DNA of 64,000 nucleotides from Dictyostelium discoideum (GCA_000004695.1 CM000154.2:3808001-3872000), one strand, 5' to 3'; numbered from the stretch's first letter, positions 36,931 to 64,000 are shown. The notes: generated by a model not told the origin, from the sequence alone. Translations and numbers: made by a program.

Positions 36931-37620
36931 ATTTTTAAAAATGTATGTGTAGGGCGAAAAAATAAAAATAAAAATAAAAATAATTTGTTAGTGTAAAAGA
37001 AATCGTATGAAGCCAGGCTCAAATCCAAACCTTTTAAAAATTCAATCTTTTTTTTTTTAATTTTTTAATTTTTTTTAATTTTTTTTTTTATTTTTTGTTT
37101 TTTTTGTTTTTTTTTTTTATACAATTTTTGACAATTACCAGTCAAATTAAACAAAAAAATTTTCCGTGGAAGTATGTGTCGCTTTATTATAAACAAATAA
37201 TACTGGGATTGAAAAATTTACGTTAATAAATAGAAAAAACAATCAAAATAAACGGTTAATTTTTTTTTTTTTTTTAAAAAAGATATTTTTAAACTTCAAT
37301 AATATCAGATCAAAAAACTTCTTCTTTTTCGAAATGTTTGATTTGATTTGATTTATTTACGTTCTCAAGAATGTTTCGCTTAGTTATCAATTTATATTTA
37401 TAGAGCCATAATATAATAATAATAATGCAAAAAAATATTCACAGTAAAATTGAAAAAGCAATTTTTATTTTTATTTTTTTTTCCACAAGAAATTTTTTTT
37501 TTTTTTTTTAAAGAATTTAAATTGTACAAAAACCTTCATTGGTAGAGCCACGCTTTTCAATCACTTTTATATAATAAAAAAATTGAACTCGAGCAGATTT
37601 CAACTAAACAACATCAACAT

Positions 37621-37693
37621 GTCGGGTTGGCTCAGTTGGTAGAGCGTAGGTCTCATAATCCTAAGGTCCAGAGTTCGATCCTCTGACTCGACA
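37621..37693 (+). tRNA. tRNA-Met (anticodon CAT), 73 nt, no encoded CCA
   Basis: Cloverleaf read by hand. Acceptor GTCGGGT/ACTCGAC (one G·T). D-arm GCTC-AGTTGGTA-GAGC. Anticodon arm TAGGT-CTCATAA-TCCTA (anticodon CAT at 34-36). Variable loop AGGTC. T-arm CAGAG-TTCGATC-CTCTG. Box A (TGGCTCAGTTGG) and box B (GGTTCGATCC) are both present. Confidence 0.85.
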
Positions 37694-37726
37694 ATTATTT
37701 TTTCAATAATACTCCTTTAAGATCAA

Positions 37727-42327: not shown

Positions 42328-45714
<3,387 letters not shown>

Positions 45715-48719: not shown

Positions 48720-48875
48720 TTAATTTATTTTTAAATTTCCAGTTTCTTTATCAGCACAAGAATTTTTGTGTTTGTCAAATAAATTTTGAAGTGCTTCAAC
48801 ATAAATTTGATGATAATGTTCAATAACTTGATCAGTAGGTGATTTAATCTTTGGTATATCAATTGGTTCGCCAAC

Positions 48876-48921
<46 letters not shown>

Positions 48922-49913
48922 ATTAGTATATACATTTTTGTTTTTGTTTTTGTTTTTGTTTTTGTTATTATATTTTAAATAAATAATATAAAATACACTT
49001 ACCAACAGTAACGATTTTATGTCTAACTGGTAATAAACCAAAATCATAATTAAAAATTCCTCTACCCATGAATAATGGTGGTGCGATACCAGTTAGATCT
49101 TTGATTTTAGTTTGAATCTTTCTAACTAATGAACCACGTGGATTTGGTACTTGATCATAGATATCATTTTCACCAAATGAATAAACTGGTACTAATGATG
49201 CACCATTTACCAATGCTAATTTAATGAAACCTTTTCTCTTTTTCAATGTAATTTCATTAAGCCCAGGACGGGCGTCTAGTGATTCCTCTGCTCCACCAAC
49301 TACCAAACAAATTGATTCACCAGCTCCTGAATTTAAAATATTTTCACAACTTTTCTTTGAAACTGATGACATACCAAAACTCATTAAAACATCTCTTAAA
49401 AATGGTATCTTAAAAAAAAAAAAAAAAAAATTTATTAATTAGTACTCTCTCTCCCTCTCTAAAATAAATTATAATACATACTTTAAAATTTGATTCTAAT
49501 GTTAATAAATGTACTTTTAAACCAGGTAATTTTTCGTCAATATTATTAGCATTTGTAGCGAAATTACAAAAAGCACCAATACTAATGATACCATGTGGAT
49601 GATAGGCAAAGATGTAATTCTTTTTTGGATCATAATTTGAATTGATAATTAAAGAGATTGGGAAATAATCTCTAAAGTAACGCCACAGTATTGAATTTCT
49701 AACTAAACTTACACGTCTACCACCACTTTCATGTTTTGTATCGAAATAAAACATCCAAACTAAATAAGGTATTGCAATACCCCAAAACAATGGTATCACT
49801 ATTAAATTGAATGCCATTATTAAACATACTGGTAATACCATTGCATAAATTGCAACTGCCATAGTTTCTAACCTTCTATATAATGGAACATTCCATGGTA
49901 CAAACCTAACCAT
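48720..49913 (-). CDS. diacylglycerol O-acyltransferase 2 family (DGAT2/MOGAT-like) acyltransferase, ~330 aa; 3 exons on minus strand: join(49913..49482,49408..49003,48874..48720)
   Basis: Exon 1 MVRFVPWNVPLYRRLETMAVAIYA…NYIFAYHPHGIISIGAFCNFATNANN…LKVHLLTLESNFK carries the DGAT2 HPHG motif and N-terminal TM hairpin; donor GTATGT. Exon 2 IPFLRDVLMSFGMSSVSKKSCENILNSGAGESICLVVGGAEESLDARPG…LVPVYSFGENDIYDQV…, phase-1 donor GTAAGT. Exon 3 (V)GEPIDIPKIKSPTDQVIEHYHQIYVEALQNLFDKHK…. Confidence 0.85.
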
Positions 49914-50233
49914 ATTATTTTTTTTTTTTTTATTTTTTTTTTTTATATTTAAAAAATGAATAGAATTTATTATGAAACTAAATATATATATAAATTATCA
50001 CAGATATTAAAATAATATATGATACAAAAAAATAATAATAATAAATGTAATATTAAAAAAAAAAGATAATATAAATTTGTATGAATGTGTGAAATTAATT
50101 TACAAAATAAAAAATAAAAAAAAAAAATAAAAAATAAAAAAAAATAAAAAAAAAAAAAAATTAAGATAAAAAAAAAATCTAATTTTTTTTATTTTGTACA
50201 TATATACACACTATTGCAACACACTTTTTTTTT

Positions 50234-51007
<774 letters not shown>

Positions 51008-51611
51008 AATAACGGTTGCTTGGAGTTACGTTTGATCAGAAAATTTTTTATTTTTTACTTTTTTTTTTTTTTCACTTTTTTTTTTTTTTTTTTCATTTTT
51101 TTTTTTTTTCGGTTGGCATAAATAGAATTTTTTTTGAATTTTTCATTTTTTTTTCAACAAGCAACAAAGCAAAAGGTAAATATTTAGTTATATAATAAAA
51201 AAAAAAAAAAGAAAAATTAGTGATATGAATCAAATGATTGAAAACCAATATTTATAGAAGTCTTCTGAAAGTCAATGAGGAATACTTATTTACCATGCAA
51301 CACCATCTGATCATTTATATCAATAATTTTTTTTTTTTTTTAAAAAAAAAAAATCTTATTCTCCATTATTGGTTTATGAAATTAAAAAAAAAAAAAAAAA
51401 AATATTCAAATTATTAATAATTAATTATTCTTTTTTTTTTTATTTATTTTCTAATCTAATAGGTTTTCTGCTTGTGTACACTCTTGATTCTCTTTGATCC
51501 CCTTTCCTTTTTTTAAAAAATAAAAATAAATGAAATTCTTATATAATGAATTTGCAAACAAAAAAAAACAAATAATGACTTTTTTTTTTTTTTCTTTTTT
51601 TATAATTTAAT

Positions 51612-52109
51612 TTATTTACTACTATTTCTTTTTGTTAAAAAATATTCTCTTTTAATTTTGATGAAATTATTAATTTTTCTTTTTTTCCAAATTATAACAC
51701 CAACGATTGCAGTACTAAAGACAACACATAAAACTACAGCGATAATAACTTTATTCCTAAAGATGAGATTACCATTATTATTATCATCAGTAATGATTAC
51801 TTTACCATCATCAGTTACTCTACAAGTACTAGTTGGTGAAATTAATAAACTAAGTGATGATTTAGTTTGTGTTAATTGGTATTTACAGGGATCGTTAATA
51901 GTTTCATAAGAGTTTGATGTTTTATTGTATGAATTTAATTTCAATGTGAATGAATTGGTTAAATTTGAATTTGAATAATTTAAAAATGTAATATTACCAC
52001 TTGTATTAGTATTATTTAAATAAACATTAATAGTTTTATTTGTATTACTAGTGGTTGTTGCTGCTGATGATGATAATGATCCATCAATTGATAATATCGA
52101 TCTTTTTAA

Positions 52110-52141
<32 letters not shown>

Positions 52142-55001
52142 CATTAATTTCTTCATTGGATGCTATATATTCACCAAGTATAAGAATATGAGTAAAATCA
52201 ATACCAGCAGTATCATTACCATTGATTAAAATATCGAAATGAGAGTTTGAATTTTGAGATAATGAACCATTAACAATTAGCTTTGTAATTGATGAATTTG
52301 TACCAATTGAAGAGTTGAATGATGATTTAATATCATTTTCAATAATACCATTACCATTAATATTACCATTATGAATTAATATAGTTTTTGAACTATTATT
52401 TGTTTTATTATTATTATTATTATTATCAATTGATAAAATTGAATTTGATAAATTAATAATACTATTAGCTGAAGTATTAAATTGATTTAATATTAATTTC
52501 ATATCTTTTAATATTAAATCACCAAAATTATTAAATTTATTAAGTTTTGTTGTAGGATAGTATGAATCTGTTGAATTGGTTGTATTTGAAGAAGAATTTG
52601 AAGAAGATGATGAAGAGGAGGAGGAAGAAGAAGAAGAATCTGAAGAAGAAGAAAACATCCAAGATTTATAATTATTTATAACATGATTACCATTATCAGG
52701 TGAATGAAATAAACTATTGGATTTTAAAGTTACATCACCATTATTTTCAAAATAAGAATTACCAAATAATTGAAATTTACCACCATCATTAATTTCAAAA
52801 TTTTGATTATTTATAAAATTTGAATTATTTAAATTAACTAAACTTTGATTATTAATTTGTGATAAATGATTATTATTTGATGTTGTTGATGATGTAGTTT
52901 TAATTATAGTTTTTGATAAATAAAAATTTGAAAAATCAATTGAAATTATTGAATTATCACTTAAATGTAAATTTGAATTTTCAAAATAAATATTTGAATT
53001 ATTTGATAAATTTAAAATTGTATTACCATTTAATTTTAAAGAAGAACCTCTATTAAAATTAATAGTTGAACCTTGATCAATTGTTACGATTGAATTTTCA
53101 TTTAATAATAAATTTGAACCTAATCCATTTAAAGAGAATTTTGAATTACTTGATATTTTCAATTGAGAATTATGATTTAACTGAATTAAATTATTATTAT
53201 GTGAATGAATTGAATTATCACTAATTAATAACATTGATGAATTTAATAAATTGAATGGATTATTCGTATTTAGGAATGAGTTTGATGATAATTGGAATTG
53301 AGCATTATCAGATAGCATTGTAATTTTAGATTCCATATTTACATCTGTACAATTCTTTAAAAGGAATATAGACTTATCTGATAAATTAATTGATGACCCC
53401 ATGAATTGAAAAACACTATTTTCATTCTGGAATATTGAATTACCAATTGAATGAATATTTGAGCGAATTCCAATAGAACTTTGATTTACAATTATTTTAG
53501 AATCATCATTTAAATAAAAATCACCAGAATCACTCACTATATACCCATTGGAATTGATAGATAGAGTACCATTACCATTCAATTTGAAATTACCATTCAC
53601 ATGTAATCCACCCTCATTATTTAAATTTATTGTTGATTTATCACCCAACAAAAATTGAGATTTAATCTCTAATAGTGAATTATTTATAATCGTTTTACCA
53701 CCATTACTTATGAACTGATCCATTTGGACTAACGATTGATTATTTGCATTCAACGTTGAGTTTGAGTCACTTAATTCTAATAACAATCCTTTTAAATTTG
53801 ATAATGGTGAATTTAAATTCACTTTTGAACCATCTGAAATTGACATACCACCTTTTGAATCTTGAGTGTTCAATAAATTATCAATATTTAAAATTGAACC
53901 ACCTTTAACAATTGATTGTGTTGAGTTTATAGTTAATGGTGAATTTACATTAATAATACCTTTACTATTTATATTAAACAGGTTTGTATTTATTGATATT
54001 GGTAAATCAATATTAAATAATCCACCATTATTATAAAAATTATTTGAATTAATTGATGTTGTTTTTGAATTAACTTGTAAATTATTATTATTATTATTAC
54101 TATCTTTTGAAGTGGAAGAAGATGATGATGAAGATGTTGTTAATACATTCATTGTTGGTACAAATTGATTTGATGCTGATGCTGATGATGATGATGATGC
54201 TGCTGATATATTTGTTCGTAAAATACCAGTTTTTGATATATTTAAATCTGAATTAATATCTAAAATACTATTACTATCTAAAATATTTACAATTCCATCA
54301 ATTTGAAAATGACTTGTTGTACGTAAACATTCACCACTATTATTATTACATCCAATATTCATACTTGAACCATTTGATAATGATAATGATCCATTAAATT
54401 GTAATGTGAATGCAACATTTAAAGTATTTGATGTTTTTTTACTTACATCACCAATTACTGTTTCTGGTGAATTAATTATTGTTGTTTTACTATTATAATA
54501 TACACAATTTGAAGATTGACCAGATGCTATTGTACCAGACGAAGATGTCGTTGAACCAGATGCTGATGATGATGATGATGTTGTTGTTGTTGTTGAAGAT
54601 GATGACGAATGAAATGATGATGATGTTTTAGTTGTATTTGTTGAACTTATCATTGTACCATTATTTTTTGAAAGTGATGGTGTTGTCGAATTTAGTTTTT
54701 GTGGCAAAATGGTATTGGTAACTGTTGACGAAACTGATGAAGACGATGATGATGATTGAACCAATGTTGAAGTTAAATTAAATTTTTTATATGTTTGATT
54801 TGACATTAAAGATAAATCACCACAAGAAATTGATGATTCATTTAAAGATGATGATGATGAAGTTATATTATTATTATTGTTGGTAGTATCATTTTGTGTT
54901 GTTAATATATGGCCACTTACAAAATAATTATTAAAAATTATATTATTTAAACATATCGAACATAAAATTATAATTAATAATTTTAAAAATAATTTTATCA
55001 T
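51612..55001 (-). CDS. large Ser/Thr/Asn-rich type-I membrane glycoprotein (signal peptide, many N-x-S/T sequons, beta-helix-like NS/NL repeats, single C-terminal TM + basic tail), 1129 aa
   Basis: N-terminal MIKLFLKLLIIILCSICLNNIIF is signal-peptide-like. Internal degenerate repeats (…NLNSPLSNLKGLLLELSDSNSTLNANNQSL…, …SNLHLSDNSIISIDFSN…) are reminiscent of parallel beta-helix/adhesin repeats. C-terminus IIAVVLCVVFSTAIVGVIIWKKRK is a TM anchor. No precise family assigned. Confidence 0.6.
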
Positions 55002-56341: not shown

Positions 56342-56406
56342 GGGTGTGAAAGTAAGTGTTTGAGTGTGAGATACGTGTGGGTGGGTGTCTGTGTGGGTGT
56401 GGGGGT
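56342..56406. promoter_or_regulatory. G/T-rich tract (gggtgtgaaagtaagtgtttgagtgtgagatacgtgtgggtgggtgtctgtgtgggtgtggggg), G-box-like, ~700 bp upstream of the first Tgr-like gene
   Basis: A strikingly G-rich island in an AT-rich intergenic region, with repeated GTGTG/GGGTG units. It resembles G-boxes bound by the Dictyostelium G-box binding factor in post-aggregative promoters. Potential G-quadruplex former. Confidence 0.3.
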
Positions 56407-56763
56407 AATTGGAAGAGCAAATTAATTTTTTTTTTTTTTTTTGAATTTAATAAATTTCTATTTTTGGTTTAATTTATTTATTTAATATTAAAGTATGATC
56501 CTATATTATTATTAGGGTTTTTGTAACCTATTAAAAAAATTACAAAATAATCGTTGTTTTATTGCCAATTATAAATATAAAAATCAAACCCATATACTTC
56601 TACTCATGATAAAACACCAATACATATACCTATAAATAACTTTTACTAAAATGAATTTATGAAAAAGCTAATTTAATTTTTAACCAATTTATTCTATCAA
56701 TTATTTAAAAATTTAAATTAAAATTTAAATAAATTGTTAAAATGGTTTTTCGGTTGGTTATTG

Positions 56764-56800
<37 letters not shown>

Positions 56801-57107
56801 CAAATATAATAATTTAACATTAACATTTGTAACTAATATAATAGATTAAAACATTTTATTAACTTCATCTGGTCAGTTTGTTTTTTTTTTTTAGGTCTTT
56901 TTTTTTGGGTCTTTTTTTTTTTTTTTTAAAAGAAAAAAAAAATTTTGATGGGTAAAAATGGCTTTAAAATCAAAATCCACCAAAAATTAAAACAAAGAAT
57001 AAAATTAAAAAAAAGAAAAAAAAAAATAAAAAAGAAAAGAAAAAAATAAAGAAAAAAAAAAAAAAAAAAAAAAAAAAATACTTTTTATTATTTCAAACTG
57101 TATCGCA

Positions 57108-57376
57108 ATGATCAAATATCTTATTTTAATTTTAATTTTAATTTTAAATATATATTATTCTAATGGGTCTGATTGCTCATATTTTGACAATGGAAGAAAT
57201 ACTTTATATGATTTAAAATCCTTTTTTTATTATCCGTAAATATTAAAATTTAAAATAATTTATTTAATTTCCCAATTCATACTAACCTTTATCATTATAA
57301 ATTTTAAATAAAAATATAAAAATAGAGATGGAACTGTGTACGTATTTTTTTTTCTATAAATAAATTACTAATTTAA

Positions 57377-57440
<64 letters not shown>

Positions 57441-59890
57441 GTTTCAAAGAATATTATAGATCCCAAGCTTTGAGCAGTAAATGGGATATTAGTTTTAATT
57501 TATGCTCTGAAGGACAATTGAGTGTTTGTCAAGGAAAAGGAAAATATGCATGTCAAACAAATTATGATTCTAATTGGGTGTTTGTGGATGTATATGATTT
57601 AGGAAGTTTAAATAAAACAAATTTCATGGATGATGGTGTTACATTAACATATAGAGGGTATATAAGTCCCGATTCCCCTAGAGGATGGTGTATAGAAGGT
57701 TCATATGAAGTAAACTATAGAATAACAAATTTCAATTTATTGTGTGATAAGGGTGTTGAGAATGTTGATGTATTAAATGCAACGGAACCAATCGGTTGTT
57801 ATTACAATGTTACTCTTAAAAGTAAACAATTTTGTGAATGCCCATTGCAATGTAGCCCACCACATGGTAAATGTGTTAATGGTGAATGTGTTTGTGACCA
57901 ATTTTCAAATGGAACATCTTGTGAAAAATTGATAATTACTATTGATTCTGTAGTCAATACAACAATTAATGGTGGAATAGGGTATATTCATTTCAGTAAT
58001 TTTTCAATGACTTTTCCATTATTTCAGTTAAAAATCGGTGACCTTTATTGTACCAATGTTATGTTATTAAACAGTTCAACACTTCAATTTACAATCAGTC
58101 CTGGTATTGGAATTCACAATGTTGAAATTATTAATGGAAATTCATCATACTTGTCATATGATTCATTTGGATATCAATGTAATTCTGATTGCTCTCCTCC
58201 CCATGGTGAGTGCAATTTAACACTTGGAAGTTGTTCATGTGATACTCAAACCAATGGAACAAATTGTGAAAACTTGATAATTACTATTGATTCTGTAATA
58301 AATACAACAATAAGTGGTGGGATTGGGTATATTCATTTCAGTAATTTTACAGTGACTTTTCCATTGTTTCAATTAAAAATTGGAGGTGTTTATTGTACAA
58401 ATGTTAAATTATTAAACAGTTCAACACTTCAATTTTCTATTGGTCCTGGTAATGGTATTCACAATGTTGAAATTATTAATGGAAATTCATCTTACTTGTC
58501 ATATGATTCATTTGGATATCAATGTAACACTGCTTGCTCTCCTCCACATGGTGAGTGCAATTTAACACTTGGAAGTTGTTCATGTGATACTCAAACTAAT
58601 GGAACAAATTGTGAAAATTCAAAATTGTTTTTAAATAACATTATCCCAACTGATGAAAATGGTGGTACAACTTATTTATATGGTTATTTTGGAAATACAA
58701 CTTCTAATTTATCAATAATGATTGGAGATAATGATTGCACAAATATTGAACAACTAAATGAAACATTAATTAAATGTGACGTTGGAAAGGGTTCTGGTTT
58801 TAAAGATGTGATTTTAAAAGATAGAGATTTAATAGTACATGTTTTGAATTTATTTCAATACTTTAAACCAATAACAACAAACCCACCAAAGCATTGTATT
58901 GATAATTGTGGTGCTCCAAATAATGGAATTTGTACTTCTACAGGTTGTATGTGTATTTCACCATGGATAGGTAATGACTGTAAATCTAAAATTATTTCAA
59001 TTCCTCAACCATCATTAAATTATTCGAATCCAGTTACAGACATACAATTGATTGACAATAAGGTAGATACTAAACTATTCCGTTCACTAGTATCAATTGT
59101 AAAATTAAGAGAATTAGATTTCCAGTCTAAACAAGTGAATTCATTTACATTTATAGAATGGGAATATTATAAAATTAATGAATCAACAAGCCAATATAAA
59201 TCAAATATTACAAATTTAGGTTTAACTACTTTTATTACTGTAACTTTACAATGGTTTGAAAATGAAACTAATGTTGTATTTGTAAATCAAAATATTAAAA
59301 TGAACCCTTCATCAATTAAATACACAATTGAGATTTCTGAATATAAATTCAGCAGTAACTTAAATCAATTACAATTAGTAATGATGGCTTCATTGTCTAT
59401 TAATAAAACAAATGATATTTGTTCAAATAAAGAGTTTAGTGAAACTTCAAGTGGTGATGATTCAAATTATTTAAAAATTCAAATTGATGATCATTCTTTA
59501 TATGGTAGATTTATAAAAAGAGCATTAATTGATTCAATTCCAAGATCAATTGATAATGTTCCTTTGGACTCTTCAATGAATCAAGTTGATAGTGCCTCTT
59601 TGTCTCAATCATATATTGGTATTTCAGTTCCTTTTTTTAAAAAACAAATAATAATTGATCCTGATTTTTCAGTACTTCTCAGTTCATCTTCTGATTCTTT
59701 CAAATCTGAATCTTCAATTTGTTCATTTAATAAAGAATCAAAATTTTCAGGTGGATTAATTTCAGCAATAGTTTTATGTAGTTTTTTTGTATTTGCAAGT
59801 TTAATAACAATGGTTGCATATAGTTATTATAAAAAAAGATATGATAGAAATATAATGAAAGAAATTCGAACAAAATTATCTAAAAGGTAA
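57108..59890 (+). CDS. EGF-like/IPT-TIG-like repeat single-pass transmembrane protein (Tgr/Tiger-family-like), copy 1, ~859 aa; 2 exons: join(57108..57235,57442..59890)
   Basis: Exon 1 MIKYLILILILILNIYYSNGSDCSYFDNGRNTLYDLKSFFYY (signal peptide), phase-2 donor GTAAAT. Acceptor aaaatag at 57441. Exon 2 (P)FKEYYRSQALSSKWDISFNLCSEGQ…. Three C-S-P-P-H-G-x-C…C-x-C-D…NGT-x-CE EGF-like units alternate with LIITIDSV.NTTI.GGIGYIHFSNF…LQF.I.PG.GIHNVEIINGNSSY TIG-like units. C-terminal TM GGLISAIVLCSFFVFASLITMVAYSYY + KKRYDRN tail. Many N-glycosylation sequons. Confidence 0.7.
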
Positions 59891-60511
59891 GTTGAACCAT
59901 ATATGTAAAAAAAAAAAAAAAAAAATAATTAAATAAATTAATAAATAAATAAGTAAAATAAATGAATAAATTTAAATGGTTATGACTGTTATTCTTTAAA
60001 AAAAAATTTCTCTGCTTTCTAAATTTTTATTTTTGTTTTTAAAATTGTGTTTATGTTAATTTTATAATCTTTTTTGCCAAATGAACCTTTTACCTATTAC
60101 TCAATTGTTACACAATCATTTTATATAGGAAATTGCAAACTACAATAAGAAATTAAAACATATTATTGATTTAATCTAATTGTTTTTATTGGTCTTTTTT
60201 TTTTAGTTTTTTTTTTTTTTTTCAAAAGAAAAAAAAAAATTTATTGGGTCCGACTTTTGTTAAAAATGGCTTTAAAATCTAAATTTAAATCCACCAATCA
60301 ATTTTTTCTTTTTTTTATTTATAATTATATTTAAAAAAAATTAAAACTTAGAAGAAAAAAATTCAAATTTATTCAAATTTATACCAAACTCTTTTTTCTG
60401 ATAGAGTTTTATTAATTCCATAAAAAAAAAAAAAAAAAAAAAGAAAAGAAAAAACAAAGGATAAAAAAAAAAAAAAAAAAACATTCTTTGATTATTTTTA
60501 AACAGTTTGTA

Positions 60512-62914
60512 ATGATATACTCTATTTTAATTTTAATTTTAATATTATATATACAATATTCTAATGGATCTGATTGTTCATATTTTGACAATGGGAGAAA
60601 TACTTTATATGACTTGAAATCCTTTTTTTATTATCCGTAAATATTAATATTTAAAATTTTTTTTCCTATTCTTACTAACCTGATTTATTATAAATTTAAA
60701 AATATTCAAATAGAAATGGTACTATGTATGTATATTTTTTATCTTTATATAAATTTCTATTTTTATATTAATTTTTTTTTTTTTTTTTAAAAAAGCTTTA
60801 AAGAGTTTTATAGATCCCATACTATGTTAGGTAACTGGGATATTACTTTTAATTTATGTGCTGAACATCAATTGAGTATTTGTAATGGAACAGTAAAATA
60901 TGCATGTCAAACAAATTATGGACCTGATGGGTTTTTTTTGGATGAATATGATTTAGGAAGTTTAAATAAAACAAATTTCATCGATGATGGTGTTATATTA
61001 ACATATAGAGGGTATATAAGTCCTAACTCCACCAGAGGAACGTGTACAGAAGGTGCATATGAAGTAAACTATAGAATTACCGATTTTAATTTATTGTGTG
61101 ATAAGGGTGTTGACAATCTTGATGTTTCAAATGTAATTCAACCAATTGGTTGTTTTTATAATGTTACTCTTAAAAGTAAAAAATTTTGTGAATGTTCATT
61201 GCAATGTAGCCCTCCACATGGTAAATGTGTTAATGGTGAATGTGTTTGTGATCAATTTTCAAATGGAACATTTTGTGAATACTTGATAATTATTTTTGAT
61301 TCTGTTATAAATACTACAATTAATGGTGGAATAGGGTATATCCATTTCAGTAATTTTTCATTGGATTCTCCAATATTCCAATTAAAACTTGGTGATGTTT
61401 ATTGTAATGATGTCATATTATTAAACAGTTCAACAATTCAATTTTCAATTGGTCCTGGTATTGGTATTTACAATGTTGAAATTATTAATGGAAATTCTTC
61501 ATATTTGTCTCTTAATTCATTTGCATACCAATGTAATACTGATTGCTCTCCTCCCCATGGTAAATGCGATTTAATACTTGGAAGTTGTTCATGTGATACT
61601 CAAACTAATGGAACAAATTGTGAAAATTCAAAATTGTTTTTAAATAATATTGACCCAACTGATGAAAATGGTGGTACAACTTATTTATATGGTTATTTTG
61701 GAAATACAACTTCTAATTTATCAATAATGATTGGAGATAACTATTGTATGAATATTGAACAAATAAATGAAACATTAATTAAATGCGACGTTGGAAAGGG
61801 TTCTGGTTTTAAAGATGTGATTTTAAAAGATAGAGATTTAATAGTACATGTTTTGAATTTATTTCAATACTTTAAACCAATAACAACAAACCCACCAAAA
61901 CGATGTATTGGTAATTGTGGTGCTCCAAATAATGGAATTTGTACTTCTACAGGTTGTATGTGTATTTCACCATGGATAGGTAATGACTGTAAATCTAAAA
62001 TTATTTCAATTCCTCAACCATCATTAAATTATTCGAATCCAGTTACAGACATACAATTGATTGACAATAAGGTAGATACTAAACTATTCCGTTCACTAGT
62101 ATCAATTGTAAAATTAAGAGAATTAGATTTCCAGTCTAAACAAGTGAATTCATTTACATTTATAGAATGGGAATATTATAAAATTAATGAATCAACAAAT
62201 CAATATAAATCAAATATTACAAATTTAGGTTTAACTACTTTTATTAATGTAACTTTACAATGGTTTGAAAATGAAACTAATGTTGAATTTTCAAATCAAA
62301 ATATTAAAATGAACCCTTCATCAATTAAATATACAATTGAAATTTCTGAATATAAATTCAGCAGTAACTTAAATCAATTACAATTAGTAATGATGGCTTC
62401 ATTGTCTATTAATAAAACAAATGATATTTGTTCAAATAAAGAGTTTAGTGAAACTTCAAGTGGTGATGATTCAAATTATTTAAAAATTCAAATTGATGAT
62501 CATTCTTTATATGGTAGATTTATAAAAAGAGCATTAATTGATTCAATTCCAAGATCAATTGATAATGTTCCTTTGGACTCTTCAATGAATCAAGTTGATA
62601 ATGCTTCTTTGTCTCAATCATATATTGGTATTTCAGTTCCTTATTTTAAAAAACAAATAATAATTGATCCTGATTTTTCAGTACTTCTCAGTTCATCTGA
62701 TTCTTTCAAATCTGAATCTTCAATTTGTTCATTTAATAAAGAATCAAAATTTTCAGGTGGATTAATTTCAGCAATAGTTTTATGTAGTTTTTTTGTATTT
62801 GCAAGTTTAGTAACAATGGCTGTATATAGCTATTATAAAAAAAGATATGACAGAAATATAGTAAAAGAAATTCAATTAAAATTATCTAAAAGACAAGTTG
62901 ATATATATATGTAA
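60512..62914 (+). CDS. EGF-like/IPT-TIG-like repeat single-pass transmembrane protein (Tgr-like), copy 2, ~748 aa; 2 exons: join(60512..60636,60796..62914)
   Basis: Exon 1 MIYSILILILILYIQYSNGSDCSYFDNGRNTLYDLKSFFYY + donor GTAAAT. Exon 2 (P)FKEFYRSHTMLGNWDITFNLCAEHQ…. Same architecture as copy 1 but with only two CSPPHGKC EGF/TIG modules (one module fewer), then the nearly identical C-terminal ~450 aa including TM and tail. Ends …KLSKRQVDIYM; copy 1 ends 5 codons earlier (AGG TAA vs AGA CAA). Confidence 0.7.
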
Positions 62915-63495
62915 AAAAATTATTAAAAATTATCCTCTCTTTTTTTCTTTTATATTGATCTGTTTTTGGTTTAATTTATTTATTTAATTTTAAAGTATGA
63001 TCCTATACTATTATTTGGTTTATAACCTAATATAAAAATTATAAAAATCATCTTAATAAATAAATAAATTTAATCCACACTATGATTATAACTGTTTTCT
63101 TAAAAAAATTTTCTCTATTTTCTTAATTTTTATTTTTGTTTTTATATATAATGATTGTGTTCATGTTAATTTTATAATGGATATTAAAAACTCGCCCACG
63201 CATGTGAGAAAAGTCTAATTATAGATTTTTGCAAAGTGAGCATTTTACCTTTTACACAATTGTTACATAGACACTTATATTACAAAACCATAAATAAGAA
63301 AATAAAACTTTTTATTGATTTAATCTGACCATTCGGTTTTTTTAGTCTATTTTTTGGTTTATTTTTTTGACCATTTTTAACAAAAGTCCAACCCAATGGC
63401 TTTAAAATCTAAATTTAATCCACCAATCAATTTTATTCTTTTTTTTCTTTATTATTATTTTTAAAAAAAATTAAAACGTAGAAGAAAAAAAAAAG

Positions 63496-63530
<35 letters not shown>

Positions 63531-63685
63531 TATTATTTTTTAACAGTTTGTAATGATTAAATATTTTTAATTTTAATTTTGATATTCAATACAACATTCT
63601 AATGGATCTGATTGTTCATATTTTGACAATGTTAGAAATACTTTTTATGACTTGAAATCCTTTTTTTATTATTATATCCCAATCC

Positions 63686-64000
63686 ATGTACGATAGATGG
63701 AATATTTATTTTAATCTATGCTCTGAACACAAAATAGGTATTTGTAATGGAACAGCAAAATATGCATGCCAAACAAAATATGATTCTAATTGGGATATTC
63801 AGGATGTAAATGATTTAGGAAGTTTAAATAAAACAAATTTCATGGATGATGGTGTTACATTAACATATAGAGGTTATATAAGTCCCGATTCCCCTAGAGG
63901 ATGGTGTTCAGAAGGTGCATATGAAATAAGCTTTCTAATTACCAATTTTAATTTATTGTGTGATAAAGGTGTTGACAATGTTGATGTATCAGAGGCAAAA
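63686..64000 (+). CDS. Tgr-like copy 3, 3' truncated by window end; 5' end degenerate (signal exon disrupted, intron lost) - possible pseudogene or N-terminally altered paralog
   Basis: The region homologous to exon 1 reads ATG ATT AAA TAT TTT TAA (stop after 5 codons) because of a deletion relative to copies 1 and 2, and the first intron is absent. The first usable ATG is at 63686 (MYDRWNIYFNLCSEHKIGICNGTAKYACQTKYDSNWDIQDVNDLGSLNKTNFMDDGVTLTYRGYISPDSPRGW…). That gives no signal peptide. The frame stays open to the window end. Confidence 0.4.
   Translation, partial: MYDRWNIYFNLCSEHKIGICNGTAKYACQTKYDSNWDIQDVNDLGSLNKTNFMDDGVTLTYRGYISPDSPRGWCSEGAYEISFLITNFNLLCDKGVDNVDVSEAK

Follow-up and report, generated by a model that had tools for sequence, protein, structure and literature searches.

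A tandem array of predicted MRH-headed receptors with ComC-type stalks in Dictyostelium discoideum

This analysis concerns a tandem array of membrane protein genes on chromosome 5 of Dictyostelium discoideum AX4, located at 56.3–64 kb of a 64,000-nucleotide stretch of DNA (GCA_000004695.1 CM000154.2:3808001-3872000; hereafter the window) that is AT-rich, with about 22% GC. We consider it reasonably probable that the array encodes lectin-headed receptors on a ComC-type stalk, evolving by birth and death and developmentally regulated, with a function that is predicted. Six-frame translation and tBLASTN place three copies head to tail, all on the plus strand, and BLASTN agrees, as the original prediction, made from the sequence alone, had proposed. 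The product of copy 1 is 100% identical to DDB_G0290285 (XP_635765; UniRef "MRH domain-containing protein"), copy 2 is DDB_G0290349 (XP_635766, "EGF-like domain-containing protein") and copy 3 is a probable pseudogene. Each protein runs from a signal peptide through an MRH head, a variable number of EGF+TIG modules, a DUF7949 domain and a supersandwich domain to a Ser-rich linker, a transmembrane helix and a basic tail of ~28 residues, and the proteins are type I membrane proteins.

An MRH head on a ComC-type stalk

The first ~175 residues match no Pfam model, and the head, searched as one sequence, found nothing in Pfam or among the PDB sequences. The family signal emerges from an alignment of 15 head segments, those of the window together with homologous ones of six Dictyostelium taxa. 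Eight cysteines are invariant in this alignment, two of them in a closing FCxC, as are a Gln, an Arg and a Tyr; a Glu, which completes the tetrad, is present in copy 1 and in most of the 15 heads. Gln, Arg, Glu and Tyr are the residues that contact mannose in sugar-binding MRH domains. A profile of the 15 heads matches CI-MPR at E=1.2e-6. The family CQ and R-x-x-x-F-x-x-C align with the CI-MPR Gln and Arg both in domain 3 (chains u113240/u108313) and in residues 314-449 of 6z32, which we take to be domain 9, and E-x-x-x-C-x-Y aligns with the Glu and Tyr of the latter in a weaker match (E=0.51). An AlphaFold2 model of an orthologous head, 77% identical to the copy 1 head and used in its place, reached a pLDDT of 89.6, and its top 47 Foldseek matches in the PDB are all MRH folds, from CI-MPR, CD-MPR, OS-9, GNPTG, XTP3B, Yos9 and glucosidase II beta. 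By profile and fold search, the head is an MRH (P-type lectin) domain.

The heads resemble known MRH/P-type lectins (CI-MPR, CD-MPR, OS-9, GNPTG, glucosidase II beta) in fold (Foldseek E to 1.6e-5, TM score about 0.6), in cysteine pattern and in having Gln, Arg, Glu and Tyr at the aligned positions. They differ from them in sequence, with about 15% identity and no single-sequence Pfam match, and in setting, with one domain carried on an EGF/TIG stalk instead of a 15-domain receptor or a protein resident in the endoplasmic reticulum. The copy 1 head keeps the complete tetrad. In copy 2 the predicted sugar-binding Glu is replaced by Gln (VIQPIGC), in AX4 and in the orthologue, and in the copy 3 head the predicted sugar-binding Arg is replaced by Leu (SFLITNF).

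Below the head, Pfam recovers the IPT/TIG and EGF-like domains that had been read from the sequence: TIG matches three stretches, at 36.4 bits (cutoff 20.9), and EGF-type matches accompany them. The membrane-proximal part matches DUF7949 (PF25820; E=2e-11, 44.2 bits, cutoff 27) followed by ComC_SSD (PF22933; E=2e-19, 70.4 bits, cutoff 24) and then the transmembrane helix, which is the layout of ComC-like proteins. A structure model confirmed the supersandwich fold, which is galactose-mutarotase-like and adjoins the membrane. The proteins belong to the ComC-stalk group, a dictyostelid-specific family. In common with ComC and ComC-like proteins they have a cassette in which DUF7949 is followed by a supersandwich that closes with LIDPDFSVL, then by a Ser-rich linker and by one transmembrane helix with a short, basic tail behind it; EGF and TIG elements occur in both ectodomains, and both groups are confined to dictyostelids. 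Identity to the ComC-like matches is 27-29%. ComC-type proteins, however, open with LRR_ComC, followed by two ComC beta-sandwiches, and have numerous EGF_2 repeats, whereas the window proteins have an MRH head and EGF+TIG modules; Pfam found the LRR_ComC and the two beta-sandwich domains in the homologue P0033 and none of them in the window proteins.

The shared cassette (DUF7949, ComC_SSD, transmembrane helix and LIDPDFSVL motif) also suits an explanation in which the proteins serve ComC-type signalling or adhesion, acting in the same cell-contact pathway as ComC, with the MRH fold as a protein-binding module and sugar binding irrelevant. The replacement of Glu by Gln in several paralogues suggests that the tetrad is dispensable in part of the family. 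However, Gln, Arg and Tyr never vary, and most heads have the Glu, among species that are only about 30% identical. Selection on a sugar pocket would give such conservation, which argues against signalling without sugar binding, and the N-terminal LRR and beta-sandwich domains of ComC are not present. We regard this explanation as unlikely, if still worth keeping in mind, and favour a sugar-binding head.

Mosaic evolution of the array

The original prediction described the genes as rapidly diverging, with substitutions clustered in the N-terminal part of the ectodomain. The clustering is real: between AX4 copies 1 and 2, nonsynonymous divergence (dN) is 0.155 in the head and 0.018 in the EGF4+supersandwich part. 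Synonymous divergence (dS) follows the same gradient, at 0.24-0.44 over the signal, head and first module and 0.04 over DUF7949 and the supersandwich, where the copies have identical stretches of 60-80 codons. Since dS too falls from high values in the 5' half to low ones in the 3' half, the pattern points to gene conversion of the 3' part. The orthologue dS of the 3' part is 0.17, four times the AX4 paralogue value, indicating that the 3' two-thirds were homogenised after the lineage split and the heads were not; this accounts for most of the N-terminal clustering. The dN/dS comparison thus reduces "rapidly diverging" mostly to a mosaic effect, made of high 5' dS, 3' conversion and a copy 1 head under purifying selection.

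The locus is syntenic in other assemblies, in the order DAGAT, a small gene, a Ser-rich transmembrane protein gene, the array and RasGEF. Heads correspond copy by copy, the copy 1 head being 92% identical to that of copy 1 in the L001 assembly and 83% to that of its copy 2, and they are of old origin, with orthologues from lineage to lineage. Even in flanking genes, the "D. discoideum" assemblies that served as orthologues differ from AX4 by about 7%. Against window positions 48720-55001, L001 and L002 (ACTFIR, ACTFIW) show 92.5-93.6% identity in the flanking coding genes, with dS of 0.12-0.14; this far exceeds the ~0.3% that has been reported from strain to strain in D. discoideum, so the two seem to represent separate lineages or cryptic species.

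Between lineages, dN/dS is 0.20-0.24 for the copy 1 head, 0.14-0.17 for the copy 1 3' part and 0.16-0.20 for the flanking transmembrane protein gene. The copy 2 head reaches 0.64, significantly above the flank (Fisher test, p<0.001). Judged by these rates and its intact tetrad, copy 1 is the member under constraint and probably binds sugar; copy 2, with its Glu lost, is under relaxed or altered constraint.

Gene number varies from two in L003 through three in AX4 and L001 and four to five in L002 to five in D. dimigraforme, and copy 1 has two, three or four modules according to lineage. The whole-module difference proposed between the AX4 copies is confirmed by their CSPPHGxC motifs, of which copy 1 has three (57851, 58190 and 58535) and copy 2 two (61205 and 61544); the additional copy 1 unit is a 345-bp EGF+TIG module, 90% identical to the neighbouring module. 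The array evolves by birth and death, with unequal crossing-over altering both gene number and module number. Of the proposal that this is an uncharacterised, recently expanded recognition/adhesion locus, a tandem array that has recently been rearranged, gaining and losing modules, stands, and recognition of the Tgr type does not. The locus is a compact case of mosaic receptor-array evolution, in which heads are distinct, stalks are homogenised and module and gene numbers vary.

Irregular models occur among the homologues. Four (P0003, P0004, P0009 and P0038) read into the next copy or have a doubled C-terminal part, and are probably gene-model fusions of adjacent tandem copies and not real proteins. 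In D. dimigraforme, one paralogue model (P0019; L004 1-2008) is fused to a DDE transposase (PF01609/PF13359), indicating a transposon insertion in the five-gene array of this species. Internally deleted copies are found at L002 15505-17331 (P0016) and L001 16892-18238, one joining the head to the last TIG and the other keeping only DUF7949 and the supersandwich; such copies in other lineages show that the array has decayed more than once, independently.

Decay has reached AX4 as well. Copy 3 (63553..64000, running past the window end) was described in the original prediction as having lost its signal exon and intron. The introns are indeed gone, removed along with 30 coding nucleotides in all, the microexon among them, by a 223-nt deletion between two TATTAT repeats, but the signal exon is kept at 63553-63672, about 84% identical to that of copy 2 and with three in-frame stops. 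An additional 1-nt deletion causes a frameshift. An open reading frame for the MRH head extends from 63656 to the window end, and compared with copy 1 this head gives a dN/dS of 0.93. Barring an error in the reference sequence at this point, copy 3 is probably a pseudogene. A retro-processed origin of its intron loss was rejected, since 30 nt of exon sequence are gone too and the deletion is flanked by TATTAT direct repeats.

Disabled copy 3, a premature stop in copy 1, the lost Glu and dN/dS of 0.64 in copy 2, and the truncated and fused copies of other assemblies could together describe a decaying, largely non-functional array in which all three AX4 copies are pseudogenes or becoming so. We find this very improbable. 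Whole-gene dN/dS of copy 1 is 0.14-0.24, like that of the flanking gene (0.16-0.20), the open reading frames of copies 1 and 2 are unbroken across 750-860 codons, and copy 1 is developmentally regulated.

The original prediction assigned the array, by its architecture, to the Tgr family. On an allorecognition reading of this kind, the proteins would be polymorphic self/non-self adhesion receptors, kin to TgrB1/TgrC1, whose variable head sets specificity. The tgr family is defined by a transmembrane segment and IPT/Ig-like E-set repeats, with ~63 members annotated in AX4 (10.1101/2025.10.22.684067). Of this definition the window proteins have the TIG domains and the transmembrane helix; their MRH head, EGF-containing modules and membrane-proximal DUF7949 and ComC_SSD fall outside it. 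Both AX4 genes are annotated "hypothetical protein" and not tgr, and no tgr name occurs among the 33 homologue clusters. In D. discoideum, IPT/TIG-only proteins (55) and EGF-only proteins (33) have been counted apart from those with EGF and TIG, which number only 5 (Glockner et al., PMC4931340); the window proteins belong to this small mixed class.

The two groups are nonetheless alike as dictyostelid-specific type I membrane proteins with IPT/TIG domains, and in clustering, birth-and-death evolution and pseudogenes. Further points in favour of the Tgr assignment are that the heads are the most different part between paralogues and that dN/dS exceeds 1 locally, in two 40-codon windows. However, Tgr proteins have E-set repeats only, without MRH, EGF or ComC_SSD, and tgrB1/C1 are head-to-head, share a promoter and are hyperpolymorphic, whereas the window genes lie head-to-tail, with constraint on the copy 1 head. 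Diversifying selection on the heads is not seen between lineages, given the ratios above (0.20-0.24 in copy 1, indicating purifying selection, and 0.64 in copy 2), and the 5'/3' contrast is explained by dS, pointing to gene conversion. The 85-87% identity of other "D. discoideum" proteins was considered as Tgr-like polymorphism and dismissed, because the flanking genes are equally diverged. We give an allorecognition role of this kind very little credence. Filing the proteins as Tgr-like is not justified, although it is the definition and the gene names that set them apart, and not a direct sequence comparison with TgrB1/C1, with which their TIG units may have distant homology. A tempting but wrong label is thereby removed.

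Predicted function and expression

If the proteins are lectin-headed receptors on a ComC-type stalk, the head would bind a mannose-type or phosphomannosyl N-glycan through the Gln/Arg/Glu/Tyr tetrad, and the stalk would fix its distance from the membrane. The supersandwich, transmembrane helix and tail, which ComC has too, would fix the protein in the membrane and may link it to a partner there. The protein could act as a surface or endolysosomal receptor in early starvation and culmination. Binding of phosphomannosyl or high-mannose glycans by the head would make this the first social-amoeba membrane MRH lectin to be described.

Several observations weigh against this reading. The predicted lectin activity is drawn from the fold and the conserved residues, and some MRH domains bind proteins instead, as domain 11 of CI-MPR binds IGF2. 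In AX4 copy 1, a CAA codon present in copy 2 and in the orthologues has become TAA at 59888-59890, cutting off the C-terminal hexapeptide QV[DE][IL]YM, which is conserved throughout the family; the sequence 3' of this premature stop still reads VEPYM* in frame, and the AX4 allele may be impaired by the removal of these residues. The revised exon models with a signal exon, given below, are predicted and contradict the public ones. Finally, the assemblies compared here inform on constraint between lineages and not on within-species polymorphism.

A more specific version of the lectin reading starts from Dictyostelium lysosomal enzymes, which carry modified mannose-6-phosphate and for which we know of no identified receptor. 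The family could be the missing Dictyostelium P-type lectin, its MRH head reading methylphosphomannose or mannose-6-sulfate N-glycans on lysosomal hydrolases, or on matrix or spore-coat glycoproteins at culmination. In this membrane receptor the head would be carried by an EGF/TIG stalk of variable length, with a GLMP-like domain next to the membrane. We offer this as a speculative proposal that is improbable as it stands. If it were true, the array would display a stepwise loss of the sugar residues, from the intact copy 1 through the Glu-to-Gln replacement in copy 2 to copy 3, with Arg replaced by Leu and the gene dead.

A related alternative casts the proteins as endolysosomal sorting receptors, analogues of the mannose-6-phosphate receptors that would circulate among Golgi, surface and lysosomes and ferry hydrolases with methylphosphomannose or mannose-6-sulfate. 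The MRH head with its tetrad agrees with this. So does the membrane-proximal domain, whose nearest solved fold belongs to GLMP (glycosylated lysosomal membrane protein), a protein of the lysosomal membrane, although with its luminal domain the identity is only 8-10%. The tail is short, with a C-terminus, [VI]-[DE]-[IL]-[LY]-M, kept across the family, and CI-MPR recognises Dictyostelium lysosomal enzymes according to a reference cited in PMC7481795. On the other hand, a long EGF/TIG stalk is what one typically sees on a surface or adhesion protein, the tail motif on direct reading fits no canonical DXXLL or YXXphi signal, and expression is developmentally regulated and not constitutive. The homologue search found the family only in group 4 dictyostelids, whereas lysosomal sorting is universal. 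We consider a dedicated sorting receptor distinctly unlikely, and retain the broader reading of a surface or endolysosomal lectin-headed receptor.

Parts of this picture are already known: both genes are in public annotation, and UniProt flags the MRH domain. We found no paper mentioning DDB_G0290285 or DDB_G0290349 in its text, and did not find the MRH, EGF/TIG and ComC-supersandwich architecture described. The architecture is new as a combination and built from known parts, and its interest is moderate to low unless lectin activity is demonstrated.

For expression, DDB_G0290285 is listed among the developmentally up-regulated genes at 2 h and, as a rapid rise, at 18 h, by column count in UP_Hr02 and UP_Hr18_rapid (sheet filter_UP; Rosengarten et al. 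2015, PMC4403905 Additional file 7). The 16-18 h interval is the finger-to-culmination transition and not the 8-12 h post-aggregative switch. The post-aggregative induction anticipated by the original prediction was not seen, the gene appearing in no 8-12 h column of the row read, with one of its three occurrences in the file not located.

The G/T-rich island upstream of copy 1 (56342..56406), to which the original prediction gave the look of a G-box, does match the G-box binding factor (GBF) response element, (T/G)G(T/G)G(T/G)G(T/G), which often occurs as closely spaced pairs (PMC2257962). Its core (56376-56406) consists of two runs, 56376-56388 and 56390-56406, with one C between them. The core holds 10 overlapping KGKGKGK matches out of the 50 in the window, where about 25 are expected, and no other cluster in the 64 kb reaches four matches. 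The island lies in a 2.1-kb divergent intergenic region, 733 bp before the copy 1 ATG, and a minus-strand Ser-rich transmembrane protein gene has its ATG 1.37 kb away. The island is conserved 5' of copy 1 in L001, L002 and L003. A second island with its adjoining block lies about 500-700 bp 5' of another paralogue in L001 and L002, so the island was duplicated along with the 5' flank of the gene. No island was found at AX4 copies 2 and 3, nor at the D. dimigraforme and D. firmibasis loci. On this sequence match, the island is a candidate GBF site.

The divergent neighbour (window 51612-55001, minus strand), which has the island region in common with copy 1, encodes a 1129-aa Ser/Asn-rich type I membrane protein for which we found no Pfam match and, in the homologue search, no homologue. 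It may be DDB_G0290283, a guess made from the identifier, and DDB_G0290283 is listed as rising rapidly at 12 h (UP_Hr12_rapid). If the two are the same, the island may serve that gene.

Gene models, upstream blocks and other features

The best model for copies 1 and 2 has two introns flanking a 12-nt microexon, so that the shared signal-peptide exon and intron of the original prediction hold for these copies, with a second intron added. Copy 1 (DDB_G0290285; ATG at 57108, stop at 59888-59890) has an exon 1 at 57108..57235, placed by translation and splice phase, that encodes the signal peptide, the first MRH strands and the first conserved Cys. Its microexon (57326..57337; DGTV) keeps the reading frame, lies between AG and GT borders and is conserved in copy 2 as well. 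Exon 3 (57442..59890), delimited with Pfam, coordinates and structure models, covers the remaining MRH head (to 57841), then three EGF+TIG modules with one CSPPHG motif each, DUF7949, the supersandwich (about 58985-59680, from Pfam and structure models), the transmembrane helix (59753-59821) and the cytoplasmic tail, which ends at the premature TAA; a divergent TIG in the third module starts at 58619. Copy 2 (DDB_G0290349; ATG at 60512, stop at 62912-62914) has an exon 1 (60512..60636) for the signal peptide and the beginning of the MRH head, a microexon at 60714..60725 (NGTI) and, in exon 3 (60796..62914), the MRH head, two EGF+TIG modules, DUF7949, the supersandwich, the transmembrane helix and the tail. 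Its second module holds the divergent TIG, and its full-length tail ends in QVDIYM.

The public AX4 models begin in the microexon region and are without exon 1: that of DDB_G0290285 (820 aa) starts with MELCT at 57328, and that of DDB_G0290349 (710 aa) with MVLCI at 60716. Because the signal peptide and the first head strands, including an invariant Cys, are missing from them, both are probably truncated at the 5' end and in need of correction. Such 5'-short models, in which the signal exon and microexon are apparently left out, would mislead localisation predictions. The microexon is used by gene models of other assemblies, for example P0008 (...FFYYPNGTVF...). A 16-nt microexon was ruled out as out of frame, and a simple two-exon model is in frame but leaves out the conserved 12-nt microexon used elsewhere.

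The upstream regions of the copies have common blocks (BLASTN E 1e-24 to 1e-64), which, together with a shared 19-mer, bear out the conserved promoter block of the original prediction. The 19-mer, ATGGCTTTAAAATCWAAAT, has exactly three matches in the 64 kb, one 5' of each ATG, with 0 expected by chance. The matches sit 150-250 bp upstream of the ATG (150 bp for copy 1), at 56958..56976 for copy 1, 60266..60284 for copy 2 and 63396..63414 for copy 3. The left edge of the repeat unit (56457..56547, plus strand) is 88% identical to 62959-63046, just 3' of copy 2. In the copy 3 promoter, a 25-bp segment (63372..63396) is inverted relative to copy 2 (60244-60268) and directly precedes the conserved ATGGCTTTAAAATC motif.

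Elsewhere in the window, a tRNA-Met (CAT) gene lies at 37620-37694 on the plus strand. Poly-Ile/poly-Tyr codon runs in opposite frames occur at 44121-44363 and poly-Asn at 50234-51007, and these long homopolymeric codon runs are typical Dictyostelium simple-sequence coding tracts.

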